A stretch of DNA of 27,456 nt from a virus (IMGVR_UViG_3300008255_000398:1-27456); one strand, 5' to 3'; counted from the first letter of the stretch, positions 3,749 to 22,574 are shown. Numbers and translations are program-made. Notes: generated from the sequence alone by a model not told the origin.

Positions 3749-3825
3749 AATTTTTTTCCCTCCAAGGTTAATATTAGAGTTTAGCACTCTATAAAAGGCC
3801 CTTGAGGCCTTCTAACAATCCTAAA

Positions 3826-4311: not shown

Positions 4312-4383
4312 AGTTTTTTCCCTCCATAGGTTTAATATTAGAGTTCAATGACTCTATAAAAGGCCCTTAAGGCCTTCTAACAA

Positions 4384-4666: not shown

Positions 4667-4741
4667 GATATTCCCTCCATAGGTTTTTATTAAGAGTTTT
4701 AACACTCTATAAAAGGCCCACGTAAAGGCCTTCTAACAATG

Positions 4742-5143: not shown

Positions 5144-6175
5144 AATATATTACCCTCCATAGGTTTATTTGTGTACAAAGTACACTATAGGGAGAATAAA
5201 CAAGCCAATTGGCCTCCTTATTCCCTCTTACAATACTTTGTTTTGGAGGGAGGGAAATTTTTCCAGTCGTCAATATTTTGTCTTTTTTCACTTATTGGCT
5301 ATTATCCAGTGTTAAACCTCAATGAAGGGAATAACGGATATTTTACCATCATATAGACGATTTATATTAAGTTGTCAATGTACATGAGGTCATTACTTAA
5401 AAGAGGGTTTAAACGTGTACTAAGAGGTAGTCAATTGAAGTGAGCTAAGATGTAAACCAGGTTGATAAAACTTGTATATCCAGTCAATTAGACAGATTGC
5501 CTAATTTTTGCCCATAAATGCAGGGCGTGGAGGCCGGGCGGCCTGTAAGTAATTAAGAAGTGTACTACAATTACTATATTATCATGAAAATAGTATCCGT
5601 GGGTTACAAACATATTAAGCGTTAATTACAGTTAAATTTCATAAGTTGATGTTATATACAAAATATGGAAAATGTCGGCCGTTGTTAGTTATCTAGGTAG
5701 GAAAAACAATCTTTTCAGGGTTATTTCATCAATGAGGGTTATTGAATAACATCAAAAGAAGGTAATAAAAAGAATGTTAACGATTGATATTTAAGCAGCG
5801 TTATTTTATTGATAGGATAGTTTTGATTTAATATAGTAGGGTAACTATATTGGTCTAATATTAATCTGTCTTATTTTGAGTGTTAAGGCCCTTAAAAATG
5901 ATTTCCCCTATTTTAGGGCCCTGGATGTTTTTGCGCCAAAAAGTTGAAATCTAAGCGTTATTACCAATATGTACCAGGATAATATTGGATGATAAAGATA
6001 TTTATGTTTAGATTGTGGATAACTTTGAGGATGGGTATGTGGAAAATAATGGGAAATGGCTATATATAGGCGTTTGTTGATGGCATAATATGGTATTAAT
6101 GGAAAATATTATTGCCGGGTGGACCTGAGACAATTAAAACGTAACAGTAAATGAGAAAATAGCCAATTTGTGTAA

Positions 6176-6189
6176 CAAACATATGTTCT
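6176..6189. promoter_or_regulatory. LexA (Cheo) box, one mismatch
   Basis: CAAACATATGTTCT versus the Gram-positive consensus CGAAC-N4-GTTCG. Confidence 0.45.
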
Positions 6190-6223
6190 ATGCAGATAGA
6201 TAGCTGATTACCGGACGTAACAC

Positions 6224-6237
6224 CGAACAAACGTTTG
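6224..6237. promoter_or_regulatory. LexA (Cheo) box
   Basis: CGAACAAACGTTTG. Confidence 0.5.
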
Positions 6238-6580
6238 TTACAGAGATTTGATGATGTCAATATATGGATAGTATGGAATAATTTTCTGTCATTGTGATGA
6301 TAAGACTTACAGAGATATGGAATATTATGGATAAATTTAAGTATTGAAGTTATTGTAAATGATGTAATATATTCCCATGGAGAATGATTGCATAAATGGA
6401 TAAATTTGGGCGTACTGTTAAAAGATGGATAATCCATGACATATATGGGAAATACTAGGAGAATATTGATGACAATATATGGAAAATGACTAGATAATAT
6501 TGGAAAATGATGAGTAAATATGTTTAAGTATGGATATACTCACGTTTATTTCCTGTTACTAGGAGATTTGAAACGCTCTA

Positions 6581-6604
6581 AGAGAGAGAGAGAGAGAGAG
6601 AGAG
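6581..6604. repeat. (AG)12 microsatellite
   Basis: Read directly from the sequence. Confidence 0.9.
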
Positions 6605-7031
6605 GTAACAGACAGTAAATATATATAAGCTATATATTTTTTGTTCTTGCTTTTTTCTTTGCTGGAAATTGTTTTTAAAAAGCCGCAAAAATTACCAAAA
6701 TATATGAGGTATGTAAATATATTGAAGTTATGGTATATGTATACATGACTATGGTATGAACTGGAAATTATTGATATATGGAAGATGATATTTTGTAGAA
6801 AAGGTATATATATTCCCTGGATATAACTGGAAACGTTAGGGAAATGTTTGGATAGGGTGAAATTATACAAGCCTCTAGGGTAGTACTGTTACTGTTACGG
6901 AGTGAGTTTTTCTCCTGTGATAGAGTGGTGTTGAGTATGGGACAGTATTGCTGACCTTATGTTACTTACGTTTGTTGGTAGAATATGGAAGGCTTGAAAG
7001 GGTTTGAGGGAGAGAGTTACAGGGATGGGGG

Positions 7032-7045
7032 CGAACATATGTTCT
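7032..7045. promoter_or_regulatory. LexA (Cheo) box
   Basis: CGAACATATGTTCT. Confidence 0.65.
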
Positions 7046-8070
7046 CGGAACAGTGACTCGATCCCTCTGTTACTTGATGATGGAAGAAATGGGAAATAGT
7101 TCCATGTGAGGTGGGAGGATGGATAATAGTGTGTCGAAATGTGTAGGTTATGTGGATAATGATGGGAATTGGTAATTGTCGAAAAGTGAGCTGGGAATGG
7201 AAGAAAATGGTAAATAAGCGTGTCACGCTCCCAATTTATGGATGAATCGCTTATATATAAATAAATTTATCCCATAAATGGAAAATAAACACATATTTGT
7301 GAGGTCGAAAAAGGCGTTGTCAGTTTAACTGACGTGTCAGTTTAACTATATACTGGAAATTGTTTTATTCAAACTAATTGACACTGGTAAATACTAGGAG
7401 AAATAAGGCGTTTTTCGTTGACATGTGAATCATATTGATGGATATATTATACAGTAGAATAAACATAATATTTTGAGCGTGTCCAAAGTATCATTAAACC
7501 ACTGTTAAATATTTAACAATGTCATTAAGCTCTGATTACCAGATGGATATAAAAAAGTGAATAAATCCGGAAAAACACAAACAAAACACTACATTTGTCC
7601 ATAATTATGTTTATATATCCAGATAATTTCCAGAAATGGATAATGGGTATGGAATAGATTGGAAATTATGGGAATTGTTACGGTGTTTTTGCTATCGTCT
7701 AATTGAACAAAATAAACATTTTGTATAATTAGAATTCAGATACCCCTATATTACTATGTTATAGCTGGTAATATCCATAATATGGTAATTGTCGAATTGG
7801 GATAATAGTGATGTTATTACCATGTATTAGTATGTATGGTAGTATATGGTATGCATGATATATATTTATATGAAATAGCACAACAAAATAATTATTGTTT
7901 TTGTGTGAATTTCGTGGTATTATGGGCGTGACAGCAGGCCATATCTTAACGTTATTACCATATACTGGAAGACACCCGGAGTACCCACCACCCGGAACAT
8001 CCGTTCCCACGTACCAGGGACCTGGTTTGATCATTCCCCAAATAATTTTTCCCCAAGTACAAATAAAACA

Positions 8071-8088
8071 GGCGAACACGTGTTCGCC
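8071..8088. promoter_or_regulatory. Perfect LexA (Cheo) box upstream of the rightward genes
   Basis: 18-bp palindrome GGCGAACACGTGTTCGCC about 60 bp before ATG 8147. Confidence 0.7.
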
Positions 8089-8146
8089 GGAAATGAGGAT
8101 GCATGAGTAACAGTAAAACAGATTTACCACCAGAGGGAGGTACTAT

Positions 8147-8677
8147 ATGAATATCGACAATAAAGCTGGCGAAGTCAGCTTACTTAATCTACATACAATG
8201 GTAAAGAACATCACAAGAGTATTACGGTTATCAGAGAAATCTACACAGCGTATCATCACAGGGTTAATGCGAACATTTTTCCAGGATTTAGTAAATTCAT
8301 CCTGTGAGGGATTAGATAGTTACAGTGAAATTTCTAACAATGAGGACACGCATAAGCTTATTGCAGCTAATTATCTTAAGAATTGCAGTGGAGCGGTTCT
8401 GGGATTCGACCTGGAAGAAATTGGTGTAGATGTAGATCATAGCGTAAGACTTTACCCAGAGAAATTTTATCTCCAGGAATTTCACGCACAGTTAATGTAC
8501 GTAATAGGGGAATATCTGGAAAAAGACGAACAATTACAGATCGAAGAAGAGGGTTGCGGTGGAGCAACGAGCAAAGATGATAATGGGATGTCCTTTGCAT
8601 TTAAGTTAGCATGTGGATGCCTAAGTGAGTTACAGTATATTACTAAAGTTCACCTAGATAGTAAAAAAGGAAAGTAA
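8147..8677 (+). CDS. Hypothetical protein (176 aa)
   Basis: GGGAGGT RBS and protein-like composition. Confidence 0.75.
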   Translation: MNIDNKAGEVSLLNLHTMVKNITRVLRLSEKSTQRIITGLMRTFFQDLVNSSCEGLDSYSEISNNEDTHKLIAANYLKNCSGAVLGFDLEEIGVDVDHSVRLYPEKFYLQEFHAQLMYVIGEYLEKDEQLQIEEEGCGGATSKDDNGMSFAFKLACGCLSELQYITKVHLDSKKGK

Positions 8678-8835
8678 CTGCATTTGCTTTCAAGCGCAAC
8701 TAATAATACTTGAGATGCAAGAGGCAGTTACATGACTTTCTTCATCCAAGAAAAGATATCTAAGAGGAGATAAAGCATGGTGGAAATTTCATTCTTTACC
8801 ACCCGCTTTTAATCTTTTGATCTTTTAAGAAGGAG

Positions 8836-9093
8836 GTGGAAAATATGATAGTTGATGATCTGCCAAGGTCAGAGGATGATTTTGACAAGCCAGAACTTAA
8901 GGACGAGGATGTTTTTGACATTAACATTAATGAGAAGGAGAACGACAAGTATATTAATTTTGAGCCTACAGGAGGGGAACCTGTATGTCCAGCATGTGGA
9001 TTTATGTTAAATAGTGAGAATGAGATATGGTGTCCATTTTGTGGGTACAATGTACTGTTAGATTATGAATGTGAGGAGGATATTGATTTATGA
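8836..9093 (+). CDS. Acidic Zn-ribbon protein
   Basis: CPACG...CPFCG. AGGAGG RBS (start may be ATG 8845). ATGA overlap with the next gene. Confidence 0.7.
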   Translation: MENMIVDDLPRSEDDFDKPELKDEDVFDININEKENDKYINFEPTGGEPVCPACGFMLNSENEIWCPFCGYNVLLDYECEEDIDL

Positions 9094-9425
9094 AGGACAT
9101 GGGATTTGAAACAATATTAGAAAGGGCACAGAAAGAAAAAACGAAAGCTTTGGTATTTACTGGAAACAAGAAATATTCTTATTTTATTGACAGATTATTG
9201 GAATTAGGAGAGGTTAGGAGAGAGAAGCCTAATCGTTATGTTTTGCCAAATGGATCATGGATACAAATTGCAGTTAACGTTAAGACTTTGCCTGAAACTT
9301 ATAACTATGCTGGATATGAAGTTGACGCAATATATATTGATGAAATAACTGATATGGACCATCAAGCATTGGAATATTTAAGTACATTAATAAGGTCATC
9401 TGGAGGTGAAGCGAAAGATGAATAA
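9090..9425 (+). CDS. Truncated terminase-ATPase-like protein (Walker B region only)
   Basis: LPNGSWIQI...YAGYEVDAIYIDEITDM...EYLSTLIRS aligns with TerL FPNGARIKL...YQGQEYDVIGFEEATGF...QFVSTCLRS. No Walker A motif. Confidence 0.65.
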   Translation: MKDMGFETILERAQKEKTKALVFTGNKKYSYFIDRLLELGEVRREKPNRYVLPNGSWIQIAVNVKTLPETYNYAGYEVDAIYIDEITDMDHQALEYLSTLIRSSGGEAKDE

Positions 9426-10665
9426 GGTTGTAAAGGTCCAAGTATTCACTGAGAACAAAGAGATATACAAGATCATACATGAACTTATGTTTGAAACTAG
9501 AAAGTTACAGAATAAGGCCATTTGTGCGATGTATGAGTGGTCCGACTTTAAGTTTGAATATAAGGATAAGCATGGGACATATCCGAAGCCTTATGAAATC
9601 CTGGAGAAGAAAAAAGGAGATGGCGAAGAGTTTTACAAAACTGTGGGTGGGTATATTGATATGCACACCAGGGAACTTTTCTATAAGAATATTTCCAACA
9701 ATTCAAGCTCAGCTATAATGGAAGCTATGAAGCTTTTTAAGGCTAAAGAGAAGGACATGCAAAAGTGCTTATGTACATTGCCATTTTACCGCCAGAGCAA
9801 TAAAATAAACCTGCATAAACAGGTTATGAATATGTTTAAAAATGATGGGAAATATTTTATTGATGTTGGACTTATTTCTCAGAAATATAAAAGAGAATTA
9901 GAATTAACATCTGGACGATTTTTATTAACCATGTGTATCAATGATAACAGCCAGAAAACTATAGTTAATAGAATACTAAACGGTGAATATAGCTTATGTG
10001 AGAGTGAGCTGAGGTATGTAAAACGGCTTAAGAAGTTCTTTATATACCTTACATATGGATTTGACCAGGTCCAATTTAAGACCGGTAATAATGTTTTGGG
10101 TGTAGACATAGGAATCAAGTATCCTGTCTACATAGCTCTAAAAGACAGTTTGAAGCGTTGGCATGTGAGTGGTGACGAGATTGGAGCCTTTAGAAAACAG
10201 GTAGAAAAAAGGCGATATGCTAAGAGAAAGCAAAGGCTTGTATGTGGTGACGCAAGCCGCAAACATGGGCGTGGTAGACATTTGAAGCCTGTTACAGATA
10301 TTGGAGATAAAGTCGCTAGATTTAAAGATCGGATCAATCACAAATATAGTAGTTTTATAATTGATATTGCAAAAAAGAATAATGTTGCTATAATAAAGAT
10401 GGAAGATTTGACCGGGATAAATGATGATGTCAAATTTCTTAAAAACTGGCCCTATTATGACCTACAAAGTAAGATTAAATATAAAGCCGAGGCGGTAGGC
10501 ATAGTAGTTGAATTGGTAAATCCTGCATTTGACACTAAAGAGTGTAGCAAGTGCGGTCATATAGAATCAGGAAACATAAAGCCACAAGAGACATTTAGAT
10601 GTGAATCTTGTGGATTCGAAGCTCAAAAGAACTACAATTCGGCATTAGTTATAGCCAACAGATAA
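9418..10665 (+). CDS. cas12f: Cas12f/TnpB-family RNA-guided protein (415 aa), probably nuclease-inactive
   Basis: RuvC-I VLGVDIG, RuvC-II IKMEDL, NWPYYDLQSKIKYKA, Zn finger CSKC...CESC. RuvC-III reads QKNYNSALVIA instead of NADxNAAxNIA. GGAGGTG RBS before ATG 9418. Confidence 0.85.
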   Translation: MNKVVKVQVFTENKEIYKIIHELMFETRKLQNKAICAMYEWSDFKFEYKDKHGTYPKPYEILEKKKGDGEEFYKTVGGYIDMHTRELFYKNISNNSSSAIMEAMKLFKAKEKDMQKCLCTLPFYRQSNKINLHKQVMNMFKNDGKYFIDVGLISQKYKRELELTSGRFLLTMCINDNSQKTIVNRILNGEYSLCESELRYVKRLKKFFIYLTYGFDQVQFKTGNNVLGVDIGIKYPVYIALKDSLKRWHVSGDEIGAFRKQVEKRRYAKRKQRLVCGDASRKHGRGRHLKPVTDIGDKVARFKDRINHKYSSFIIDIAKKNNVAIIKMEDLTGINDDVKFLKNWPYYDLQSKIKYKAEAVGIVVELVNPAFDTKECSKCGHIESGNIKPQETFRCESCGFEAQKNYNSALVIANR

Positions 10666-10674
10666 GCAGTTTAC

Positions 10675-10792
10675 GGGCTGACTTGACAGCCTTAAAGCGA
10701 GACAGGGGTTCGCCCCTGTACTCTGCTAAGTCGTGATTACGCCGACATCCCAGGTGTGTGCCTGGCAATTAATATAAAAAACTGTTTTGAAG
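10675..10792 (+). ncRNA. tracrRNA/omegaRNA-like scaffold, copy A
   Basis: Starts 10 nt after the cas12f stop. Stems GGCTG/CAGCC, ACAGGGG-TTCG-CCCCTGT, GTCG/CGAC and CCAGG/CCTGG. Homologous to 18796-18913 with compensatory changes. Confidence 0.75.
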
Positions 10793-12558
10793 ATGGTATT
10801 ATAATTGGCGAATTGAAGAGTTTATAAAGTATTTGAGTTGAAGTAAATGGTGGGCATGATAATGTTTGAAGTAAATGTAAAGAATGATAATGTTTGAAGT
10901 ATGATCATATAATGAGCTAAGGTTTGAAGATAGGAAAACATATAATAAAGTTTTAAGCGGTGGAATATTTGAAGAAATACATTATCGGTTGAAGATAGTG
11001 TGGTAGTTGTTTGAAGAAGTGAGTGAGATAGAGGGAAAGTTTGAAGCGATAGAGGGAAATTTTGAAGATAGGTAATTAATTGATATTATGTTTGAAGTAT
11101 ATAGTAAGATGATAATGTTTGAAGTATATTAGTAAACTTAAAGAACTTGAAGAATAATCTTGCATTTGAAGATGTGTTATTGAAGAAGATGTGTTATTGA
11201 AGAATTTTATATTTTGAAGATATGAAGCTTTATATTATTGAAGATATGGAACTAATAATAATTGTTGAAGAGGTTTGTGGGAGTTAATTGGAGATTTGAA
11301 GATTTATTTAGAAGATTATATAAATTATCTAATGTTGAAGATGGGATAAAGCATGTAAAATTTGAAGAGAAGAAAATTATGAGATATTGAAGGTTGAAGT
11401 TTAAGTTTATAATGCATTAGGCAATGTTGAAGTTGAAGGTTTGGATGATGTCTTTATTGAAGAATGTAAGTATCCCATTTGTTGAAATTGAAGGATATGT
11501 CTATTGTTTATTATTGAAGATGTAAGTATGGTATGGTGATATTGAAGGCTATATAGTGTAGTTGAAGAAGGAAATTAGAATATGCTTTATTGAAGTTTAA
11601 ATACATTTATGTCTGTTGAAGGCTATTGAAGAAAGAAAAGATGTTGTTTCTGATTAATTGAAAGTAAGCTAATATAGTGTGTTGAAGAAGGAGAAATATT
11701 GAAGAAACCTAATAAGACAGTTGAAGAAATGGATATTGAAGAAACTAATGGCATTACAATATGTTGAAGAAATAATTTGAAGATGATATGTATAAGCAGA
11801 ATTGAAGATAGTTGTCTAAGGTATGTTGAAGAGAGTATATGTTGAAGATAGGTATATTGAAGTAATAAAGAGAGATTATAGTTGAAGAAAATGTTTAAGC
11901 TATATATTGAAGATTGTTAAGGATTGATTGGATTGAAGATGGAATTTGATTGAAGTATAATGAGTGTAATTGAAGGATTAAATAAATGTAAATTGAAGTA
12001 AGATACTATTTATAAGTTGAAGATACAAATTATTATTTACTATTGAAGATATTATTTGGAATTATTGAAGAATGGGAAGTATTGAAGATATTTATTGAAG
12101 AATGTTATGTTTTATCTAGTTGAAGATAGAATTGAAGAATGTATTGTTTTATGAAGTTGAAGAATATGTATACCCTCTATAGTTGAAGATTGCTATTATA
12201 AAATAATTGAAGAAAATATATTATACACCCAAATTGAAGACCCAAAAATTGAAGGCAAATATATATGATTGAAGAATGTGCAATGTTATTGAAGGATAGA
12301 ATAATTGAAGAGTATAGTTAATATTAATTGAAGTTTATGCTAAGAGATGATTGAAGAGAATGAAATGATTGAAGAAGATAAAATTTACTGATGATTGAAG
12401 GTTAAGATTTATATTTTATTGAAGAGATATAATAATAGTATTTAGTTGAAGATTAAAAATGTGTTATATTGAAGAGAATGAAAATAATAATAGTATTTGA
12501 TTGAAGAAGAGCAATGATTGAAGAGATAGTACTAATTGAAGAAGGTTTATAATTGAAG
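10787..12558 (+). CRISPR. Non-canonical array of about 77 TTGAAG hexamers with variable spacers (mean period about 23 nt)
   Basis: Manual count of 77 exact copies on the + strand, and I saw none on the - strand. No ORF. Bounded by the scaffold RNA and a terminator. The repeat itself is certain, while the CRISPR role is inferred. Confidence 0.65.
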
Positions 12559-12601
12559 GAAAAAGGATGATGTGTTTGGCCTGCCTATGTCAGGTCTTTA
12601 T

Positions 12602-12652
12602 TTATGCAAAAAAGTCTGTACTCAGAGCGGAGTACAGGCTTTTTATGCATAA
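12602..12652. terminator. Bidirectional intrinsic terminator closing the array
   Basis: TTATGCAAAAAAGTCTGTACTC-AGAGCG-GAGTACAGGCTTTTTATGCATAA inverted repeat with A/T tracts. Confidence 0.8.
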
Positions 12653-12789
12653 TAATTACAATAACTCAAATTATTTTTAATTAACAACAGGAAGTGATTA
12701 AATTATATTATAGCTATGAGCTAATTGCAACAATCATGTTGAAAATTGTCGGATATACATATATTATTATTATAGGGGTGATGTAACAA

Positions 12790-13245
12790 ATGGATAAAAT
12801 AAATTATGAAAATCTATATAAAAAAGCATATACAGGTAAAGAATCAAGTTATGAAATATTTGAAAAGTGGGCAAAATCAAGGAACATTATTAAATTTATT
12901 AAAAAAACAGGATCATGGAAGCAGATAACAAAAAATGGTATAAGAGGAAAGTTCCAAAACAGAGGGTATGAAAAAATGCCATTATCGGATCATACATCTG
13001 TATGGAAAGATAAGACAGGGAAAAAAATTCTTATTAGTCAGCCATATGAATATTATCCAGGTGATATGATGTCTTGTTTTGCTCCACCTAATATATATTG
13101 TGATGAAGAGCGTTCCCAAAAAAACTTTAATGAATTAAAAACATGGTGTAATGAAAGAAATTTAGAAGTAACGTTCTATGATTCAACAAATAGTTGGTAT
13201 TATCCATTCAATGCTATATTAATTGAAATAAGACAAAAAGAATAG
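12790..13245 (+). CDS. Hypothetical protein (151 aa)
   Basis: GGGGTG RBS. Motifs DHTSVW, ISQPY and SWYYP. Confidence 0.75.
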   Translation: MDKINYENLYKKAYTGKESSYEIFEKWAKSRNIIKFIKKTGSWKQITKNGIRGKFQNRGYEKMPLSDHTSVWKDKTGKKILISQPYEYYPGDMMSCFAPPNIYCDEERSQKNFNELKTWCNERNLEVTFYDSTNSWYYPFNAILIEIRQKE

Positions 13246-13293
13246 AGTGTTTTTTCTATCAGGCAACATTGGAACTTTTGGAGAGGTGACAGA

Positions 13294-13752
13294 ATGAACG
13301 ACATCACACTATACGGTAGAAATAGTTATGAAGATAAAGTAGAACCTTATCTTGACCAGATTGAAAAAATGTATATGGATGGATATGGAAGAAAAAAGAT
13401 TGCTGATAATCTTGGAATTTCAGTAAGTCTTTACACCAAATATTTAAAAATCCATAAGGACCTTGCATTAGTTGAAAACAGTGGAACTGAAAACATTGTT
13501 GAGAAGCTACGAGCTAGCGTAATTAAAGAAGCGACTGGATATGAGACAGCGGAAGAAACAACAATGTATGATGCAGATGGTAATGTTATAGCAAAGAAAG
13601 TAAAAACATATTTCAAGCCTGGAAATGCTAGATTGTTAGAATTCTTATTAACTAATTTTGAGAGAGATACATTCTCGAAAGATGGTAAACAGGATGATGA
13701 TGGAGCTATTCTTATCGAACTATCACCGGAAGCAATGGAATACAGCGAATAG
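13294..13752 (+). CDS. terS: Terminase small subunit
   Basis: N-terminal HTH (RKKIADNLGIS) and ATGYETAEETT...LLEFLLTN pattern. Lies upstream of terL. Confidence 0.7.
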   Translation: MNDITLYGRNSYEDKVEPYLDQIEKMYMDGYGRKKIADNLGISVSLYTKYLKIHKDLALVENSGTENIVEKLRASVIKEATGYETAEETTMYDADGNVIAKKVKTYFKPGNARLLEFLLTNFERDTFSKDGKQDDDGAILIELSPEAMEYSE

Positions 13753-13763
13753 GAGACATAATT

Positions 13764-14369
13764 ATGAGTGAAAACAGCAAAGATAAAATAGTGGTATTAG
13801 ACTTTGGACATGGTGGAGATGATCCAGGCGCACTATTTTGTAAGGGTAGAGGAACAGAGGCCAATTGGGTAAACAATGTTGGGTTAAACATTTATGATGG
13901 TCTGAGAAAAACAACAACATTTGATGAAAAGTATAAGCTCAGATTGACCAGGCATAATGTTGGAAAGACGATTAATCAAAGATGTGAAATTCTTAATAAG
14001 TTTGCACAATGCTATGATATTGTTGATGTTTATAGTATCCATGCTAATTCTCATGCATCAGCGAATGCCAATGGTGCAGAGATAGCTCTTGCGCCAAGTA
14101 ATAAGATTGATGTTGATTGGGCTACTAGCTTTTTAAATCAATATTGCAGTAAATTTAAGTTTACTAATAGAGGTATTTTGATTAGACCGCATAAAGATAA
14201 TTCTAAACAGAGTTATTATGGATTGCAGAGAAAAACAAAATCTAATGTATATGTCAAAATCATTGAGTTTGGATTTGTTTCTCATGATTCAGATAGTAAA
14301 AAGTTGTGGAATTGCATAGATGATATTGCAGATTTCACAGCAAATTTTATAAAAATGAGGTATGATTAA
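13764..14369 (+). CDS. N-acetylmuramoyl-L-alanine amidase (Amidase_3), putative endolysin
   Basis: VVLDFGHGGDDPGA, E (TEAN), SIHANS and IIEFGFV Zn/catalytic motifs. Confidence 0.9.
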   Translation: MSENSKDKIVVLDFGHGGDDPGALFCKGRGTEANWVNNVGLNIYDGLRKTTTFDEKYKLRLTRHNVGKTINQRCEILNKFAQCYDIVDVYSIHANSHASANANGAEIALAPSNKIDVDWATSFLNQYCSKFKFTNRGILIRPHKDNSKQSYYGLQRKTKSNVYVKIIEFGFVSHDSDSKKLWNCIDDIADFTANFIKMRYD

Positions 14370-14381
14370 GGATGTGAGGTA

Positions 14382-14609
14382 ATGTCCGAAAAGTATTTTA
14401 GTAAGTATACAAGAGTTGGGAAATACAAAGGAGAGATTAGCAATAGATTAGTTGACACTGATCATGATAGTACTTCTTTTAAATGCCCTACATGTGCTAG
14501 TACAGACATAACAAGAGCAACAGCAAGTAGTTTAAGCTGGACTTGTGTGAACTCTCATTCATGGGATGCTCCACACTTTAAGAAATATATAAGAAAGATC
14601 AATTGGTAA
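14382..14609 (+). CDS. Small Zn-ribbon hypothetical protein
   Basis: CPTC...CVNSH. GAGGT RBS. Confidence 0.65.
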   Translation: MSEKYFSKYTRVGKYKGEISNRLVDTDHDSTSFKCPTCASTDITRATASSLSWTCVNSHSWDAPHFKKYIRKINW

Positions 14610-14644
14610 TCGACACAAAATACACACCAAAAGGAGATGACAAC

Positions 14645-14917
14645 ATGCCATTATTGCCAGGTAAAATGGGTTTGGGAAAGAACATAAGTGAATTGATGTC
14701 TGGTGGTAGACCTAAGAAACAAGCTATTGCAATCGCAATGGATAAGGTTAAAACAAGGCCTAAATCTATGTCTACGCCTATGAAAAATAAGGCAAAATCT
14801 ATGATTACAGATATTAAGTCAAAATCTAAGGCTGTCCCTAAATCTACAGGATCAAGGTCTAAAGCTGTCCCAAAAACTAGGACCGCTGATAGTAATTACA
14901 GTATATTTAAAAAATGA
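14645..14917 (+). CDS. Small basic Lys-rich phage protein
   Basis: MPLLPGK...KNISELM..GRPKKQAIAIAM motif common in phage morphogenesis regions. AGGAG RBS. ATGA overlap with terL. Confidence 0.7.
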   Translation: MPLLPGKMGLGKNISELMSGGRPKKQAIAIAMDKVKTRPKSMSTPMKNKAKSMITDIKSKSKAVPKSTGSRSKAVPKTRTADSNYSIFKK

Positions 14918-16311
14918 GAAAATTAACACTACTTGGTGAACCATCAGCAAAACAGAGAGAATTTTTTCTTGCTAAAAGAAAACATATTGGATATGGTGGT
15001 GCTCGTGGAGCAGGTAAATCCTGGGCTATGCGACGTAAATTTATATTACTTGCTTCACGATATCCAGGCCTTAGAATTCTTTTATTAAGAAGAACATTTC
15101 CAGAATTAAGAGAAAATCATCTTCTACCTCTCCAGTTAGAAATTGGAGGGTATGTTCGATATAAGGAAAGTGAGAAAGTATTTATCTTTCCTAATGGAGC
15201 TAGAATTAAACTAGGCTACTGTGATAATGAAAATGATGTATTGCAGTACCAGGGCCAGGAATATGATGTAATAGGATTTGAAGAAGCTACAGGATTTACA
15301 GAATTTCAGATTCAGTTTGTATCAACGTGCTTACGATCCGTCAGGACGGATTTTGAGTCACGAATCTATTATACTTGTAATCCTGGAGGCGTAGGACACT
15401 CGTATATAAAAAGATTGTTTATTGACAGAGAATTTGAAGGAAATGAAAATCCAGATGATTATGTTTTTATTTCTGCAAGAGTTTGGGATAATAAAGTTCT
15501 TATGAAGAATGACCCAAATTATATTAAGATTCTAGATTCATTACCAGAGGACCTTCGAAAAGCTCATAGAGATGGAGACTGGGATGCCCTTGCTGGACAG
15601 TTCTTTAAAGAGTTTTGCAAAGATATCCATGTAATAGAACCATTTGTTATACCTGATAGCTGGACAAAATATGTTACTATCGATTATGGATTGGACATGT
15701 TAGCAGCTTATTGGGTAGCTGTAGACTATCAGCGACATTGCTATGCTTATAGAGAGGTGCATGAACCAAATTTAATAATTAGTCATGCTGCAAAGCGTAT
15801 TATAGAGGCAAATAATGGAGAAAACATTAAGGAATTTTATTGTCCGCCAGACCTCGACAATAGACGACAAGATTCAGGTAAATCTGCATTGCAAATCTTT
15901 GGCGAACATGGTATAATTTTTTCAATTAGCTCAAATGATCGGGTTAATGGTTGGTTAGCTACAAAGGAATTACTTAAAATTTATGACAGCGTAGATGAAC
16001 ATACTGGTGACCCGATCAGAACTAGTGATTTAAAAATATTCAGCAATTGTAGGAATTTGATAAAGCATCTTCCGGTAGCTCAGCAAGACAGCAAAAACCC
16101 TAATGACGTGTCGAGCGTACCGCATAATATAACTCACTCATTGGATGCACTAAGGGGTTTTGCAATCACCTGGGTTGATGCTCCGTCAAATTCCGCCGAA
16201 GATGAAGTTACTGGAAAAGTTTGGGTAACAGGAGAGCTGAAAATGCGAGGATTTAATTCTCGACAAATTAAGCAAATGGCTAAAACAGGAAAAATAAAAC
16301 TGCTTATGTGA
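14914..16311 (+). CDS. terL: Terminase large subunit
   Basis: Walker A GGARGAGKS, Walker B VIGFEEA, motif III TCNPGG, nuclease IDYG and HSLDALR. Confidence 0.95.
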   Translation: MRKLTLLGEPSAKQREFFLAKRKHIGYGGARGAGKSWAMRRKFILLASRYPGLRILLLRRTFPELRENHLLPLQLEIGGYVRYKESEKVFIFPNGARIKLGYCDNENDVLQYQGQEYDVIGFEEATGFTEFQIQFVSTCLRSVRTDFESRIYYTCNPGGVGHSYIKRLFIDREFEGNENPDDYVFISARVWDNKVLMKNDPNYIKILDSLPEDLRKAHRDGDWDALAGQFFKEFCKDIHVIEPFVIPDSWTKYVTIDYGLDMLAAYWVAVDYQRHCYAYREVHEPNLIISHAAKRIIEANNGENIKEFYCPPDLDNRRQDSGKSALQIFGEHGIIFSISSNDRVNGWLATKELLKIYDSVDEHTGDPIRTSDLKIFSNCRNLIKHLPVAQQDSKNPNDVSSVPHNITHSLDALRGFAITWVDAPSNSAEDEVTGKVWVTGELKMRGFNSRQIKQMAKTGKIKLLM

Positions 16312-16320
16312 GGGAGTATC

Positions 16321-17205
16321 ATGAATACCCAGTTAATATTGATAGATGAATTAGAAAATAGATTTTTATTGAAGAACAAAGATATAGATATAGTTTTTGA
16401 TATGAATAAAGCTGATGTAGCATATGTTACATTTAGTAAAATAGATTTTTCAACATACCCAAATATAAAACATGTATTATGTCCATGTACTAACACGAAA
16501 CATATCACAGTAAATAAGACTCAGACACTACACTACTTAGATGATGCCGCATGGTTAGGCTCAAATGTAAGGTCCACTGTAGAGTGGACTATTTGGGCTA
16601 TAATGAATTTGTTAAAAAGTGATCATAACAACAGGCCTAATGAAATATTTGGAAAGACTGTGGGCATTATTGGTATGGGCAGGATAGGTCAAAAAGTAGC
16701 TAGAATACTTAGATCACTTGGATGTCATCTCATTTATCACGATCCATATGTTGAACAATGCGGTGGAATTCTTAATATATCTTTAGAAAGAATTATGAAA
16801 TATTCTCAAATTATCACTGTTCATGCAGTGAGTAATGAATCTACATTTAAACTAATTTCAGAAGAACAATTTAATCAGGTTAGGCATAGACCATATTTTA
16901 TTAACTGTTCAAGAGGAGCAGTAGTCAGTGGTAAAGCTTTATGGAATTGTTACACCAGGAACAAACTAAAAGGATTTGCTATTGATGTGATTGATACTTA
17001 TGATCCAGAAACTATTGCTAGTATTAGACATGAATCGCTAATTAGTAATAGGGTTATATTTACAGATCATAAGGCTGGAAGTAGTATTGAAAGTAGAATT
17101 GCAACAGATAGCTATGTTATTGACAAATATATCACAACTAGGGGACAGCAAAATGGAGAAGACGAAAATAATAGTAGAATGCTGCAACAATCATCTCGGA
17201 CTTGA
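16321..17205 (+). CDS. D-2-hydroxyacid dehydrogenase family NAD-binding protein
   Basis: GKTVGIIGMGRIG, FINCSRGAVV, AIDV and TDHKAG. Confidence 0.88.
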   Translation: MNTQLILIDELENRFLLKNKDIDIVFDMNKADVAYVTFSKIDFSTYPNIKHVLCPCTNTKHITVNKTQTLHYLDDAAWLGSNVRSTVEWTIWAIMNLLKSDHNNRPNEIFGKTVGIIGMGRIGQKVARILRSLGCHLIYHDPYVEQCGGILNISLERIMKYSQIITVHAVSNESTFKLISEEQFNQVRHRPYFINCSRGAVVSGKALWNCYTRNKLKGFAIDVIDTYDPETIASIRHESLISNRVIFTDHKAGSSIESRIATDSYVIDKYITTRGQQNGEDENNSRMLQQSSRT

Positions 17206-17923
17206 TGAAGTTCGAATGAAGATGATTGAAGAGGCAGCAAAAGCAGGAGCGACTTATGTAAAATGGCAGCTTTATAATTCCGATTTTATCAATGAAGAAT
17301 ATCCTAATTATGAAGTTGTAAAAATGAACATGAAAAGATGTGAACTTACGCCATTAGCAGTAAGTAACATCATGAGGAAATCTCAGGATATGAATGTTAT
17401 CCCGATGTTTACCATCTTTAATATTGACAGGCTTGCATTATTGCAGGGATGGCCGCCTACTGCTATGGCTGTTAAGATAGCAAGCCCGGACCTATTGAAT
17501 TATTCTTTAGTAAATGCAGTAAGGTCCAAATTTAAAGATTCAGAAATGTTCATTAGTGCTGGTATGCACAATGAAGAAGAGATTGAAAACGCTAGATATA
17601 GGTATAGTGATTTAAAACTTAAATGGTTGTATTGTGTTTCGAAATATCCAGCACATAAAGAAGATATATCATACATTGATATGAGAAGCTTTGACGGATT
17701 TTCAGACCATACAGAAGGCATCGATTGCGCTTGTCTAGCAATAGATATTAATCAGCCAACGTATATTGAAAAGCATTTTACATTGTCTAAGTTACTTCCT
17801 GGGAAAGACCAGGAAATTAGTATTGATCCGGAAGAACTTAAAAGGTTAGTAGTTCATTCTGGATATCATATTAATAACTACAATTATAAAAGGAGATTTA
17901 AAGAAATTGGAATATCTAGTTGA
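17153..17923 (+). CDS. neuB: N-acetylneuraminate/nonulosonate synthase family (NeuB), no C-terminal AFL domain
   Basis: ECCNNHLG, VKWQ, KIASPD, ISAGM, YCVSKYP, GFSDHT, IEKHFTL. Confidence 0.9.
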   Translation: MEKTKIIVECCNNHLGLDEVRMKMIEEAAKAGATYVKWQLYNSDFINEEYPNYEVVKMNMKRCELTPLAVSNIMRKSQDMNVIPMFTIFNIDRLALLQGWPPTAMAVKIASPDLLNYSLVNAVRSKFKDSEMFISAGMHNEEEIENARYRYSDLKLKWLYCVSKYPAHKEDISYIDMRSFDGFSDHTEGIDCACLAIDINQPTYIEKHFTLSKLLPGKDQEISIDPEELKRLVVHSGYHINNYNYKRRFKEIGISS

Positions 17924-18776
17924 AGAGAGAAGTTGTCCTATTTGTAATAAGTATGATTCGTCAGTAATGTGGAAGAAAAGCCCTTTGACAAAATATAGTA
18001 AGACTATAATGGATTATGAAGATATGATTCATGGCGAAAATCATATATGTCACATATGTGGGATGGTATATGAAAAGTATCCAATGATTTCTTCCTGCCT
18101 GGATGAATTTTATCAAAAGGATGAAGAAAAAGGGATAAGTCCTTACCGTGAAATCTATTCGTATACTATGAATAGCATATACCTTCATTTTGCGCATACT
18201 GTGCAATATTGCAAAGAGGTATTAAAGAAAGAAAACTTTGGTGATTGGTTAGACATTGGAAGTGGTGATCCATGGATAACTAAAGAAATGCAAAAATATG
18301 GTTCTGGATGGAGTTGGGACCCTGGATTTGATCACACAAGAAATTTCAAGAGCGATCCAAGAAGTAGATTTGACTTGGTCACATGTATGAACATGCTTGA
18401 ACATGTCTATGCTCCTATAGAGTTTTTACAAAACATGCATCCACTGGTTTCTAACTTTGGTAACCTTATTCTATGTGTACCATATGTGTACACTAATAGT
18501 ATTACTATGCATAAAGACCAATGGTTTAGTAACGCTCATATACATCATTTTGACATTAATTCTTTAGATAATACCTGCTTATTAGCAGGATGGAAGATTG
18601 ATAGTGTTCAATTGCTTTATGAAGAGATGGGACAGAAGATATATGTTAGATGTAAGAAAATTAGGCCTAAACAGCCTGTATTTAATTTTAATAAAGAAAA
18701 AGTTAGCAGAGCAAAAGATTTTATCTCACTTCAAAATCAAGTTTGGCTGGCTGGAAATGATATGAAGGTAGTTTAA
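17907..18776 (+). CDS. Class I SAM-dependent methyltransferase with N-terminal Zn finger
   Basis: CPIC...CHICG, WLDIGSG, FDLVTCMNMLEHV, HIHHF. TTG start after AGGAG. Confidence 0.85.
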   Translation: MEYLVEERSCPICNKYDSSVMWKKSPLTKYSKTIMDYEDMIHGENHICHICGMVYEKYPMISSCLDEFYQKDEEKGISPYREIYSYTMNSIYLHFAHTVQYCKEVLKKENFGDWLDIGSGDPWITKEMQKYGSGWSWDPGFDHTRNFKSDPRSRFDLVTCMNMLEHVYAPIEFLQNMHPLVSNFGNLILCVPYVYTNSITMHKDQWFSNAHIHHFDINSLDNTCLLAGWKIDSVQLLYEEMGQKIYVRCKKIRPKQPVFNFNKEKVSRAKDFISLQNQVWLAGNDMKVV

Positions 18777-18795
18777 TGGGTGATGAATGGTAATA

Positions 18796-18913
18796 GGTTA
18801 ACTCGATAACCTTAAGGCGAGGCTGGAAAAATTTATTCTTGCACTCTGCCAAGCCGTGAGTATACCGGCATCCCAGGCGTGTGCCTGGCAAATTTAATAT
18901 ATGTTAAGACTAG
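18796..18913 (+). ncRNA. tracrRNA-like scaffold, copy B, with anti-repeat
   Basis: Aligns with 10676-10776. The 3' segment AATATATGTTAAGACTAG (18896-18913) is imperfectly complementary to the adjacent repeats, including G-U pairs. Confidence 0.75.
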
Positions 18914-18924
18914 TGTTTGTGCTG

Positions 18925-19085
18925 GTTTAGTACTAACATGTGTTGACTTGGAGGCTGGATGTTACAAAACTTAATAACATAATATCCAGGTTTAGTACTA
19001 ACATGTGTTTTGTTGGAGGATGCTGCTTACTGCACCAATTAAATATAATCCTGGCAGTTTAGTACTAACATATGTTTAGTTGGAG
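18925..19085 (+). CRISPR. Mini CRISPR array: three 29-nt repeats and two spacers (36 and 38 nt)
   Basis: GTTTAGTACTAACATRTGTTnnnTTGGAG at 18925-18953, 18990-19018 and 19057-19085. Confidence 0.88.
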
Positions 19086-19163
19086 CTAGAAGATTTACAC
19101 CAAATTTGGAGAGTTGAAGCTAAAGTAAATAGACATTTTAATAACATTATAAGGAGCGACAGT

Positions 19164-20384
19164 ATGAATAAACAATTTAAGAAAGACAGAACAGGAAAGT
19201 ATGTATTAGAGAGCAATATAAAACCACCAGAAGGTCCAGAAATAGCGGAAGTATCTGCTATACCTAAAGGTGAGCTATGTGTAAAGGTAGAGGATATATC
19301 TGATATATCGTTACCAGAAGAAGTGCTAAAAGTAAAAAAGGCTGATAAGCTTGCCATTGTTGGGTTTGCTCCTAGCTGGAACTTAGCTCCTTTTGATGAT
19401 AAAGAGTTTGATGTTTGGGGAATTAACGAATTATATGTCTTGGCAGTAAATAAAAGGTTTACAGGTTGGTTTGAAATTCATGATCCTTGGTCACCTTCCA
19501 GGAACAATGCGAATCATCACAATTTTTTAAAAACCTGTACTATCCCTTTATTTATGCAGAGACATTATGGCGAATTCCCCAATAGTCTTGAATTCCCACG
19601 TAAACAGGTCAAAAACTTTTTTAACCAGAATATTATTATTGGCAATGTTGGATCATACTACACAGATTATAGTAACCAAATAACCTGGATGAATGGTCTT
19701 GCTATAATGCTCGGATATAAAGAAATTCATGTGTATGGCGTTGATATGGCTCAATCGAGTGAATATGCTTGGCAAAGAGCAGCATGTCAATTTATGATAG
19801 GCTATGCCCTTGGAGCTGGAATCAAAGTGCTTATCCCTAAAAATAGTGAGTTATGCAAATATCCTCGTGACTATGGTTGGGAAACAGACAATTATCAAAG
19901 GAACTTGAAGAAACAAAGAATCAAGGATGTTGGAAATAGAATTCAGCATATCGAGAATGCAATCATTGAACAGGATTATTATAAAGATGCTTTTGCAACT
20001 GAAAACAAGAGAGCTAATGACGATTATAACAATAAAATCAATCAGCTTAAATTAAGGGTTGTGAAACTTCAAACCATGCTTGAGAAGAATTCTGATATTA
20101 ACAGGATTATAACTACTATGCCTAAAGATATGAAAGAGCTTGAAACAAAGACACCTGAAATTCTTGGCAAGGTAGCTAAAGAAAATGAAACTGTTGAGGC
20201 AGAATTGAAGGCTTTAGAACAGGATATAACTGCTCTTAGGACTGAAAGAGAGCAAGTCAACAAGCAACATTTTATCCAGATGCAAATATTGGACCTTAAC
20301 AAAAAGAATCATACTACATCAAAAAGCTTACATCAGGGTTGTCTTGATGAATGCAAACATGATTTAGCAAATAACTTAGTGTGA
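19164..20384 (+). CDS. Putative nonulosonate/sialyl-transferase-like (Maf/DUF115-type fold) protein with C-terminal coiled coil
   Basis: LAIVGFAPS, VWGINE and AIMLGYKEIHVYGVDM motifs. ATG 19164 follows AGGAG, whereas the TTG at 19080 lies inside a CRISPR repeat. Confidence 0.6.
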   Translation: MNKQFKKDRTGKYVLESNIKPPEGPEIAEVSAIPKGELCVKVEDISDISLPEEVLKVKKADKLAIVGFAPSWNLAPFDDKEFDVWGINELYVLAVNKRFTGWFEIHDPWSPSRNNANHHNFLKTCTIPLFMQRHYGEFPNSLEFPRKQVKNFFNQNIIIGNVGSYYTDYSNQITWMNGLAIMLGYKEIHVYGVDMAQSSEYAWQRAACQFMIGYALGAGIKVLIPKNSELCKYPRDYGWETDNYQRNLKKQRIKDVGNRIQHIENAIIEQDYYKDAFATENKRANDDYNNKINQLKLRVVKLQTMLEKNSDINRIITTMPKDMKELETKTPEILGKVAKENETVEAELKALEQDITALRTEREQVNKQHFIQMQILDLNKKNHTTSKSLHQGCLDECKHDLANNLV

Positions 20385-20391
20385 GGTTGAT

Positions 20392-21123
20392 ATGAATAGA
20401 TTACAGGGATTAATGTTGGGATTTGGAGATATTGGAACAGCAGTGCATAGCTTGTTTAAACATGTAATTAACTTTGAGATTATTGATCCAAAAAGAAAGA
20501 TGGTTGCAAAAATTGATAGGACCAGATATGACATTATAGTTGTAACTTATCCTTATCATGATGGTTTTATTGAAGAAATAAATGACCTGGCTATTAAGTA
20601 TTCAGCTTTTGACATAATGATATTTTCTACTTTGCCAATTGGGATCACTAAACAAATTACTGGAGCTGTACATATCCCAGTAGAGGGAAAGCATCCAGGA
20701 CTTGACAGGTATATAAGAAGCTGGAGATTATTTATAGGGCATAATGGCAATATTAGCGAAAAAATAATGCATTGTTTAAATAACATTGGCAACAACTACA
20801 CATTGGTAAGAGATTCTAATGTGACAGAAGCATTGAAGCTTTTATCAACAACTTGCTATGGTATTAACATTGAGTTTGCAAGGCTTGTTGGTGAAGTATT
20901 CCAGACATTGAGAAGCGATTATTCTTTGTGGAATGAATATACCTCAGCATATAATCTCCTGTATTCTAATACCAATGAGTTCAAGAGTATTAAGAGATAT
21001 AATCTTTATGCGCCTAGAGGTCCTATTGGTGGACACTGTATAGTATCTAATGCAAAATTATTAGGGAAATCGTTTAAATCACCTATTATCGACATTGTGA
21101 AAGGGGAACAATATGAGTCTTAA
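20392..21123 (+). CDS. UDP-glucose/GDP-mannose dehydrogenase family protein, short form
   Basis: GFGDIG Rossmann motif, FSTLPIG, EALKLLSTT..GINIEFA and catalytic IGGHCI. Confidence 0.8.
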   Translation: MNRLQGLMLGFGDIGTAVHSLFKHVINFEIIDPKRKMVAKIDRTRYDIIVVTYPYHDGFIEEINDLAIKYSAFDIMIFSTLPIGITKQITGAVHIPVEGKHPGLDRYIRSWRLFIGHNGNISEKIMHCLNNIGNNYTLVRDSNVTEALKLLSTTCYGINIEFARLVGEVFQTLRSDYSLWNEYTSAYNLLYSNTNEFKSIKRYNLYAPRGPIGGHCIVSNAKLLGKSFKSPIIDIVKGEQYES

Positions 21124-21925
21124 AGATATAAAGGAAAGATCAGAGGTAGTTATCATTGGAACTGGGAGGTATGAAGAGGAGCTTCCTTATGCATTTGATT
21201 TAAACAAAACAGATGTGTGGGCGTTAGGTCCTAGTGCTTTTAAAGCTTATGATAATAATGAACCATTTTCATATAACTGTTTATTTGAGATACATAATAA
21301 AAAGTATTCTCCATACTTTAGAAATGAAATTTACCAGGAATTCTTGAAGAAAAATCCTGTTAAAAAGATTATGCAGAAAGAAAGCTATACTTATCCTTTA
21401 TCAGAAGCATACCCACTTGAGGAGATAATAGAAGAGTTTGGAACTAAATTCTTTATATGTTCTCTCTCATATGCTATAGCATTAGCCATACATATGAAAT
21501 ATGAGAAGATAGTTCTAAGAGGTATTAACATGATCATGACTGATGATTTAATACAAAAAAATGGTGTTGAGTTTTGGTTGGGAATTGCTGAAGGAAGAGG
21601 AATAAAAGTTGAAACTTCTTCAGTATGTGATTTATTGAAATGTGGTAAAATGTATGCATATGAATGTGATAATACATTAGCTGTGTATCAGCAAAGATAC
21701 ATGAATACTATCATAAGAGAGATAGCAAGATATCTGCAAAGAAACCATGAATTCCACACAACTATGGCTGAAATTTCTTCAAGTGTTACTGACATGTTTA
21801 ATATGCTTACTACTGAAAGAGTTGGCTTCATGAGACAGATACTTGAAAGACATGAAATAAACTATAGAAATGAGGATGATGAAAATGAGAATTGTTGCTC
21901 TAGTACCTGCAAGGAAGGGCAGTGA
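21113..21925 (+). CDS. Paralog of 19164-20384 (putative glycosyltransferase)
   Basis: VVIIGTG, DVWAL, LFEIH, YPL, AIALAIHMKYEKIVLRGINM and FWLGIAEGRGIKV all align with the paralog. Confidence 0.6.
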   Translation: MSLKDIKERSEVVIIGTGRYEEELPYAFDLNKTDVWALGPSAFKAYDNNEPFSYNCLFEIHNKKYSPYFRNEIYQEFLKKNPVKKIMQKESYTYPLSEAYPLEEIIEEFGTKFFICSLSYAIALAIHMKYEKIVLRGINMIMTDDLIQKNGVEFWLGIAEGRGIKVETSSVCDLLKCGKMYAYECDNTLAVYQQRYMNTIIREIARYLQRNHEFHTTMAEISSSVTDMFNMLTTERVGFMRQILERHEINYRNEDDENENCCSSTCKEGQ

Positions 21926-22574
21926 AAGGGTACCTAATAAGTCTATGATGAGGCTTGTTGGTAAACCATTATTATTCTACACCATTGATGCCGCTGTGGA
22001 CTCTACTCTAATAGAAGATATTTACATAAGCACTGACTATACACCAACTGTACTTAAGCAATGTCTTAAGAGGAAAAAGACACACTATGTAAGAAGGCCT
22101 GACGAAATGTGTACTAGTAGTTCACCAGCAATAGATTATATAAGACACTTTATTGATGTTGCTGATTTAAGTCAGGACGACATAATTGTTCTTTTGCAGC
22201 CTACATCTCCTTTAAGAACTGGTATAGACATAACTAATGCAATAGAAGCGTATAAAAATACGGATAAGGAAACATTAGTCAGTGTTGTTAAATTTCCTAC
22301 TATAAAGCAGTTTTATTATTCTGATGGATCACCAATGGAGATCGGTGAGTATTTGAGATTAGAGCAGTCTAACCAAACTGTATATAAGAGGAATGGTAGT
22401 ATCTATATATTTAATGTCAGATTCTTTAAAGAGCGAAATGATATATTTGGACACAGCCCATATCTTTTCGAGATGGATTCATTCAAAGCAGACGATATTG
22501 ACGATATGAAAGACTTTAAGAAAATTGAAGCTTTTGTTAAAGGGGGAGGGTTTAAGCTTTGGAAATCTTTTTAG
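21885..22574 (+). CDS. neuA: Acylneuraminate cytidylyltransferase (CMP-nonulosonate synthetase)
   Basis: VPARKGSERVPNK, GKPL, STD, RP, LLQPTSPLR, NGSIY, DIDD. Confidence 0.92.
   Translation: MRIVALVPARKGSERVPNKSMMRLVGKPLLFYTIDAAVDSTLIEDIYISTDYTPTVLKQCLKRKKTHYVRRPDEMCTSSSPAIDYIRHFIDVADLSQDDIIVLLQPTSPLRTGIDITNAIEAYKNTDKETLVSVVKFPTIKQFYYSDGSPMEIGEYLRLEQSNQTVYKRNGSIYIFNVRFFKERNDIFGHSPYLFEMDSFKADDIDDMKDFKKIEAFVKGGGFKLWKSF

Follow-up and report, generated by a model that had tools for sequence, protein, structure and literature searches.

The virus record IMGVR_UViG_3300008255_000398, known from sequence alone and analysed here over its whole length of 27,456 nt (the window), carries a cas12f gene followed by an RNA scaffold, S1, and by a non-coding array in which the hexamer TTGAAG occurs in 77 perfect copies. 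S1 is a trans-activating RNA (tracrRNA) of CRISPR type V-F1 from which the anti-repeat stem has been deleted. The array units arise by local tandem duplication, and the Cas12f protein has eroded at its C-terminal end with its reading frame kept. A homologous scaffold, S2, lies further along the same strand beside a mini-array of ordinary build. We consider it likely that S1 and the hexamers, here called handles, form one architecture, in which the repeats have been reduced to the bases that the shortened scaffold can still pair. That the array supplies guides to a non-cutting Cas12f repressor is the function we tentatively favour, and guiding and silencing is the weak step of that reading. The features concerned are collected in Table 1.

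Table 1. Features of the Cas12f cassette and of the second scaffold, in window positions
Feature	Position	Strand	Basis
Cas12f1, AsCas12f1/V-U3 clade, 415 aa	9418..10665	+	Profile and structure matches
S1, four-hairpin derivative of a tracrRNA that has lost the long anti-repeat; adjoins the first handle	10675..10786	+	Folds, alignment gap
Stem-1 loop triplet CTT, pairing with handle AAG	10682..10684	+	Pseudoknot alignment
CAA stub of the long anti-repeat, putatively pairing with handle TTG	10766..10768	+	Folds, alignment A4
Handle-only array, 77 perfect TTGAAG, non-coding	10787..12558	+	Counts
Two terminator-like hairpins at the array end	12578..12645	+	Hairpin scan
S2, orphan tracrRNA, no adjacent cas gene	18795..18924	+	Tail:repeat duplex, 78% identity to L066 scaffold
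Mini-array of canonical build; three repeats of 30 nt with the end TTGGAG(G/C)	18925..19086	+	Repeat search

Two scaffolds and their pairing with repeat ends

The regions 10666–10800 and 18786–18960 align along their full length with a mean column identity of 74% and share a 52-nt core that is 85% identical. S1 and S2 differ in stem 1 (GGCTG/CAGCC versus GGTTA/TAACC) and in stem 3 (GTCG/CGAC versus GCCG/CGGC), share a CCAGG-YGTGTG-CCTGG hairpin, and have the stem-1 loops ACTTGA and ACTCGA, respectively. The same four hairpins are predicted in both, with fold z-scores of −3.83 for S1 (0 of 200 shuffles equally stable) and −1.76 for S2 (11 of 200). Stems and loops therefore stand where an earlier note on this DNA had placed them. 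Its description of the two as copies of one scaffold is right as far as homology and shared folding go, but they differ in kind, since only S2 has the long anti-repeat and 30-nt repeats; for S1, it had overlooked the missing anti-repeat stem and the lost catalytic aspartate of the adjoining protein. Both scaffolds contain the short repeat/anti-repeat pseudoknot that characterises Cas12f1 tracrRNAs, and both belong to that class. An RNA model that included S1 in its training set (R1) scored S1 at 105 bits, and an Rfam scan returned two weak chance matches, neither of them on S1 or S2. The two scaffolds are 71% identical to each other, and each is 72–78% identical to that of a related locus, L066; in-lineage duplication and two separate acquisitions are therefore both compatible with these values.

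The phage Cas12f is 72% identical to a sister clade consisting of P0002, L066 and L067 (100/99 support). In this clade the ADYNAA motif is intact, the loop reads ACTTGA, the anti-repeat is long, and full repeats ending in TTGAAG form regular arrays; the loci L068 and L069 are similar. Compared with S2 and seven homologs, S1 lacks about 38 nt (alignment columns), a deletion that removes the anti-repeat along with three-quarters of the first repeat, counted from its 5′ end, and leaves, in place of the long repeat/anti-repeat duplex, a stub of 3–4 bp at most. What S1 retains explains the motif kept in the array, with which the ancestral repeat, as seen in the sister clade, ends on its 3′ side. 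The six bases are exactly those that S1 could still pair, AAG through the loop triplet CTT and TTG through the CAA past the last hairpin. The earlier note's proposal that TTGAAG is a true CRISPR RNA (crRNA) handle is borne out by L066 and L067, in which the same ACTTGA loop accompanies full repeats with this ending. In two other loci, L001 (6372–6450) and L002 (8508–8584), the first spacers are only ~20 nt long and the arrays are otherwise canonical, a hint that in this clade the shortening of repeats and spacers starts at the scaffold end. The S1 cassette lacks three defining features of type V-F1 (the catalytic triad, the long duplex and the regular array) and is therefore not an ordinary member, although its sequence suggests that it derives from that type and would work like a Cas12f1 ribonucleoprotein.

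Homologous loci were fetched, and the region downstream of cas12f was read in 37 of them. In 18 loci a stem-1 loop could be placed as well as a repeat, and with S2 these gave 19 scaffold/array pairs; two loci in which no repeat was found automatically (L079, L084) and 17 loci without a recognisable scaffold of this type were omitted. With repeat ends set by eye and close kin included (L006/L009, L066/L067, L068/L069), the reverse complement of loop positions 2–4 lay within the last six bases of the repeat in all 19 pairs, compared with a mean of 8.0 and a maximum of 17 matching pairs in 20,000 permutations. The loop triplets were CTT (7), CTC (5), TTT (4) and TTC (3). The covariation of loop and repeat end, on which the earlier note had staked its claim, thus held across four triplet types. 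An alignment of nine homologous sequences agrees with it, with the three pairs of the pseudoknot kept in 100% of the filled cells and two of the three varying on both sides. The OsCas12f1 scaffold, to which the note had pointed, has the same first hairpin, a loop ACTTCC and the end TTGAAGG in the published supplement (PMC10090079). Since the short repeat/anti-repeat pseudoknot of Cas12f1 is already described in PMC11246509, the pairing is correct but already known.

The second contact is less uniform. In minimum-energy folds, the triplet at the CAA position pairs with the TTR of the repeat in S2, L001, L007, L066, L068 and L069 (as CAA:TTG, TAA:TTA or TAA:TTG), and it is absent from those of L002, L067 and S1 alone; 85% of the cells of alignment A4 are paired at the stub. 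The CUU of S1 could also pair with GAG through a U–G wobble, whereas the CUC of S2 would face AAG with a C–A mismatch; orthogonality of the two scaffold/array pairs, suggested in the earlier note, would be one-way at best.

S2 is an ordinary orphan tracrRNA with a canonical mini-array. Its long anti-repeat (~18889–18913; loop ACTCGA at 18801–18806) forms a tail:repeat duplex of −16.7 kcal/mol, and the repeats, which begin at 18925, 18990 and 19057, enclose two spacers of 35 and 37 nt. It thus shows the long duplex, 29–33-nt repeats and 35–40-nt spacers of type V-F1. Sequencing runs X2 and X3 contain one additional repeat-spacer unit, which in X3 adjoins the scaffold-side repeat, and contigs of run X1 break at the same place; therefore, the S2 array either varies among samples or was collapsed in assembly. 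The first S2 spacer had 0 exact matches in viral contigs.

The handle array and the Cas12f protein

The array has 77 copies of TTGAAG on the + strand and none on the − strand, compared with an expectation of 1.7 and a maximum of 7 in 2000 shuffles. The 76 spacers measure 0–50 nt (median 18), 54 of them at least 14 nt, and contain ~5% C. Handles with one mismatch were found at the chance level (10 versus 10.9), indicating that the handles are not decaying while the spacers diverge. A purine precedes the handle in 61 of 76 units (61% expected, P 2e-4), as pairing with the U that follows the CAA stub would predict, and an A follows it in 54 of 77. Predicted handle exposure was 0.139, above all 12 arrays with shuffled spacers (0.103 ± 0.014), and was 0.065 in 12 controls with the composition of canonical spacers. 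Handle-complementary words were avoided in the spacers relative to base shuffles (TTC, 1 versus 6.2; TCA, 1 versus 8.2), but not significantly so relative to dinucleotide shuffles. Neighbouring spacers resemble one another (P 0.002), and at least eight tandem segments with periods of 16–37 were detected, several being near-perfect tandem copies; the array units therefore arise by local duplication. The terminator-like hairpins past the last handle (2 versus 0.1 in shuffles) were scored one on the + strand and the other on the − strand, the latter flanked by runs of A and T.

Two other origins of the array were rejected. A protein-coding repeat (IEE/VED-like) is contradicted by stops that fill all three + frames, by unit lengths that spread 25/25/26 over the three phases and by the lack of any open reading frame (ORF) of at least 80 aa within the array on either strand. 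An assembly artefact is contradicted by one contig of X1, possibly the source run, that spans 8000–14583 with 0 differences; the short contigs of X2–X4 falling in the array, among those listed, also had 0 differences.

The protein encoded upstream of S1 is the only Cas12f-like sequence in the window. It matched AsCas12f in the PDB (8J12, E 7e-81) and the PADLOC profiles Cas12f (2e-100) and Cas12u3 (2e-98), and the top Foldseek matches of its structure model (predicted local distance difference test 80) were AsCas12f1. Its length lies in the family range of 400–500 aa, and the model is consistent with the WED/REC/RuvC/TNB fold of Cas12f1. Its RuvC triad is not intact in the sequence: D230 and E329 are retained, and N405 stands in place of the third aspartate, which 214 of 221 homologs have at this column. 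Residues T372, S373, N403, A404, A408 and N411 are also altered. Lineage-specific changes affect 15 of 37 scored sites in residues 366–415 versus 24 of 249 before them (P 9e-6), compared with 2 of 37 and 12 of 249 in the sister protein. The frame is intact despite this erosion, the branch leading to the protein is about twice as long as those of its sisters, and an attempt to compare nonsynonymous with synonymous substitution rates met saturated synonymous sites. According to PMC10090079, the D406A mutation of OsCas12f1, at the equivalent position, abolishes cleavage. The phage Cas12f is probably no longer able to cut DNA, and we infer from its pattern of changes that it is non-cutting yet still selected for RNA and DNA binding.

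One member of the triad is also missing in 27 of the 221 homologs, in two of them by truncation alone. One of these 27, a separately nuclease-eroded Cas12f in which the first RuvC aspartate is an asparagine, is encoded on a complete phage (L007, 4985–6445; P0008), along with a normal scaffold and a mini-array of two full repeats with AT-rich spacers, for which no self-target was found. In L074 (2632–3100), two identical tandem scaffolds lie 3′ of a single Cas12f-like gene, each followed by its own repeats; the third aspartate of this gene's product also appears to be lost. The phage Cas12f groups with CRISPR-associated Cas12f1 proteins whose loci carry tracrRNAs and arrays. This grouping led us to reject an IS605/IS607 TnpB element, and no transposase family turned up among the window ORFs scanned, the ends of insertion sequences having had no separate search.

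Possible functions of the array

In the reading that we favour, the starting point is an ancestral cassette of Cas12f1, tracrRNA and CRISPR array, like those of L066 and L067, whose two copies would have taken on separate roles in this phage. One copy, S2, would have stayed an ordinary tracrRNA with a mini-array, served in trans, and the other would have become a non-cutting, RNA-guided DNA binder. A single transcript would run from cas12f through scaffold and array to the terminator. A Cas12f dimer would bind the scaffold, and the scaffold would capture any single TTGAAG by two helices of 3 bp each, CUU:AAG at the loop and CAA:UUG at the stub, often extended by U:R. Capture would be simplest in cis, with the weakly folded, C-poor RNA in between looped out, loose fragments being the alternative. 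The 10–20 nt past the captured handle would serve as the guide, and the complex would bind without cutting and silence AT-rich promoters, either the host's or those of rival mobile elements. Hexamer slippage and point mutation, not Cas1-Cas2, would supply new guides. The scheme in its fullest form, a minimal array in which one cis scaffold samples 6-nt handles of a 77-member library with no RNase III maturation and silences many promoters beside a canonical array insulated by CUC:GAG, we regard as doubtful.

Parts of this scheme have precedents. According to PMC13186708, deletion of stem 4 from the OsCas12f guide raises interference tenfold, and Al3Cas12f naturally lacks stem 4. By count on the published guide, the stem deleted from OsCas12f is the repeat/anti-repeat stem, with about six repeat bases left. 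These precedents make S1 with the first handle a plausible natural single guide; the use of the other 76 handles goes beyond them. The favoured reading also draws on the conservation of the protein's binding part and on spacer length, since guides of 14–16 nt suffice for nuclease-dead Cas12f (dCas12f; PMC13472631) and 54 of the 76 spacers reach 14 nt. The extended −10 motif TGnTAnnnT is weakly in excess, with eight occurrences in the array versus 3.1 expected (P 0.002).

A number of results weigh against this reading. Three of the eight extended −10 matches are duplicates of one unit, and five motifs were tried; TATAAT was not enriched (6 versus 3.9), and a promoter scan of the array was at chance (15 versus 16.5). 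Seed-plus-TTR combinations were in excess in non-coding DNA at only one of two offsets (39 versus 25, P 0.013; 17 versus 24). Ten of the 76 spacers are shorter than 10 nt, and their 5% C compares with 12–18% in the canonical spacers of relatives. No target of the S1 array was found in the contig, where self-matches were at chance, and nothing convincing was found in eight related loci, upstream of nine cas12f genes, in GenBank phages or in five Bacillota genomes, the last searched without a control. With a partial contig and guides this short, these blank searches are weak but real evidence. The CAA:UUG helix does not form in the minimum-energy fold of S1 itself, and six base pairs over two helices are a weak hold. 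The engineered stem deletions were made in single-guide RNAs, not in arrays, and the handle-only array is seen in one lineage only. The 83 canonical spacers likewise had no full-length match outside their own locus among the matches listed, and no protospacer-adjacent motif was derived from them.

The perfection of the handles beside targetless, length-variable and C-poor spacers is better accounted for if only the handles matter and the spacers are flexible linkers. The array would then be an RNA decoy, or anti-CRISPR, soaking up the Cas12f-tracrRNA complexes of hosts or competitors whose repeats end in TTGAAG. Such repeats are common in the family (L066–L069, L078) and occur in 7 of the 14 published systems listed in the supplement of PMC10090079. 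Cas12f acts as a dimer on one RNA, as PMC13186708 describes, and the non-cutting protomer might also poison rival dimers, with the CUC:GAG pairing of S2 shielding the phage's own canonical array. Decoys are known from other systems, namely RNA anti-CRISPRs (Racrs; PMC10651486) and viral single-guide RNAs against Cas9 (10.64898/2026.06.01.729453); no Cas12f Racr appeared in the portions of the Racr literature searched. However, the phage's own scaffold and protein precede the array and would consume the decoy, so that their retention is left unexplained. Foreign tracrRNAs should also prefer crRNAs with the full anti-repeat pairing (−11.6 to −16.7 kcal/mol) to array units, for which the median with the S1 tail is −4 kcal/mol. 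On balance, we consider a decoy unlikely.

Perfect handles fit poorly with two further explanations. The first handle is covalently placed as in an engineered guide, and S1, handle 1 and spacer 1 could by themselves serve a dead Cas12f repressor as its natural single guide, with the remaining 76 units forming a tolerated, slippage-driven minisatellite. The local duplication of units described above agrees with this, as does the lack of an evident processing route once the long duplex is gone. Neutral drift should nevertheless yield many one-mismatch handles, of which there is no excess, and the −1 purine bias and the raised handle exposure run along the array. A tract of 1.8 kb would moreover be costly for a phage, and the terminator closes the array cleanly; we find this explanation rather improbable. 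More improbable still is a decaying relic, with a drifting protein and an array that is junk or a DNA-level element (such as tandem −35-like boxes or protein-binding sites) unrelated to the scaffold. The long branch of the protein, whose sites before the C-terminal part also changed more often than the sister's (24 versus 12), and three handle-led promoter-like sites speak for it. Such sites are at chance level, however, and the frame is intact, with the erosion gathered at its nuclease end. The scaffold folds well and has undergone compensatory changes, and the motif is the ancestral repeat end, sited where relatives have their arrays.

Known systems and genomic setting

The closest known relatives are the type V-F1 systems of Cas12f1 (AsCas12f1, OsCas12f1; PDB 8J12, 7WJU, 9NZQ), with the same family and fold, a tracrRNA after the gene and the stem-1 loop pseudoknot. 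S2 and its mini-array match this pattern, as given in PMC10090079 and PMC13186708, except for the missing gene. The S1 cassette departs from it in the absence of the long anti-repeat, in repeats of 6 nt versus 29–33, in spacers of 0–50 nt that arise by duplication and in the loss of the third RuvC aspartate. The dCas12f-sigmaE and CRISPR-adjacent dCas12f systems (PMC13472631) are likewise nuclease-dead (in the phage protein, to judge by its sequence), have single-guide-like scaffolds and 14–16-nt guides, and have been proposed or shown to control transcription. Those proteins are C-terminally truncated, mostly linked to sigmaE and helix-turn-helix (HTH) genes, and supplied with a scaffold for each guide. 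The phage Cas12f, in contrast, is full-length, of the AsCas12f1 clade and eroded by point changes, and its 77 handles share a single scaffold; neither a sigma nor an HTH family was found among the three ORFs upstream of cas12f or in the ORF past the terminator.

TldR proteins, the TnpB-derived repressors (10.1101/2023.11.30.569447), combine a dead RuvC with RNA-guided repression, as proposed here for the S1 cassette. The family is associated with phages, has its origin in TnpB and its omegaRNA, uses one guide per scaffold and is not known to have a handle array. Racrs and viral single-guide RNAs are phage RNAs that mimic repeats or fused tracr-crRNAs; in PMC10651486 and 10.64898/2026.06.01.729453 they are solitary units directed against host types I, V-A or II, with neither a co-encoded dead effector nor a long array. 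The Racr definition asks for a solitary unit that inhibits a cognate host system; the S1 array has 77 units. VIPR and TIGR-Tas are described as arrays in phages that combine conserved motifs of very short length with variable stretches and silence competing elements; unlike the S1 cassette, they have Vipr or Tas effectors and fixed periods, and they lack a tracrRNA.

Protein-led and scaffold-pattern scans, limited to the patterns used, revealed no further handle-only array. One scaffold pattern gave a single chance match, and the other recovered L001 and L002 only. A terminase-led scan yielded 14 loci with no Cas12f, and a triple-handle scan yielded at least 123 loci with no Cas12f, including 46 dense ones that lie nearly all in one reading frame. 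A search of 399 genomes from a single Bacillota class, run with no positive control, gave no match at E 1e-40. In the literature searched, mostly papers available without subscription, no Cas12f array turned up whose repeats had been shortened to the pseudoknot handle. The stem missing from S1 has been trimmed by engineers in single guides, and no natural array so built was found. If the handles are read, the array would be a natural form of multiplexing that spends ~24 nt per guide instead of ~66, with a shared scaffold and one of the smallest Cas effectors. It would also generate guide diversity with no spacer acquisition, which bears on how orphan or dead phage Cas12 systems gain guides. 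If the decoy explanation is true, it would be an RNA anti-CRISPR made from a CRISPR locus. Since they have 6-nt repeats and no fixed period, such arrays should be missed by standard CRISPR finders, and others may hide behind Cas12f genes annotated as transposases.

The window genes include terminase, portal-like, amidase and sugar-nucleotide genes, and the phage sequence is present in aquifer and groundwater sequencing runs. A 51,752-nt contig on record encodes the same Cas12f protein, so that at least 24 kb of the phage lie outside the window. Immediately upstream, an ORF of 111 aa (9090–9425) overlaps the start of cas12f and resembles a terminase large subunit fragment (PHROG 979, E 1e-5). 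Two proteins encoded upstream had no atlas match at ≥0.9. S2 is located within a sugar-nucleotide cluster (16321–22574) that, together with 1419–2096, encodes a NeuB-like synthase, a 2-hydroxyacid dehydrogenase, a methyltransferase and two cytidylyltransferases amid virion genes; to judge from its ORFs, the L001 Cas12f is also adjoined by sugar-nucleotide-like genes. A region of ~3 kb (5140–8140) has short, doubtful ORFs only, is C-poor on the + strand, and contains an (AG)12 run (6581–6604) and the strand-biased words ATGG (41 versus 12) and TGGA (39 versus 11); it is possibly an origin or a further long non-coding RNA. Finally, four copies of a 60–90-nt cassette were found on the − strand (2859–2936, 3750–3829, 4300–4394 and 4671–4748; repeat families D1, D9, D13 and D17). 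Each consists of a GGCC hairpin followed by a GGAGG ribosome site immediately upstream of successive leftward ORFs, and together they resemble a recurring early-gene expression signal.

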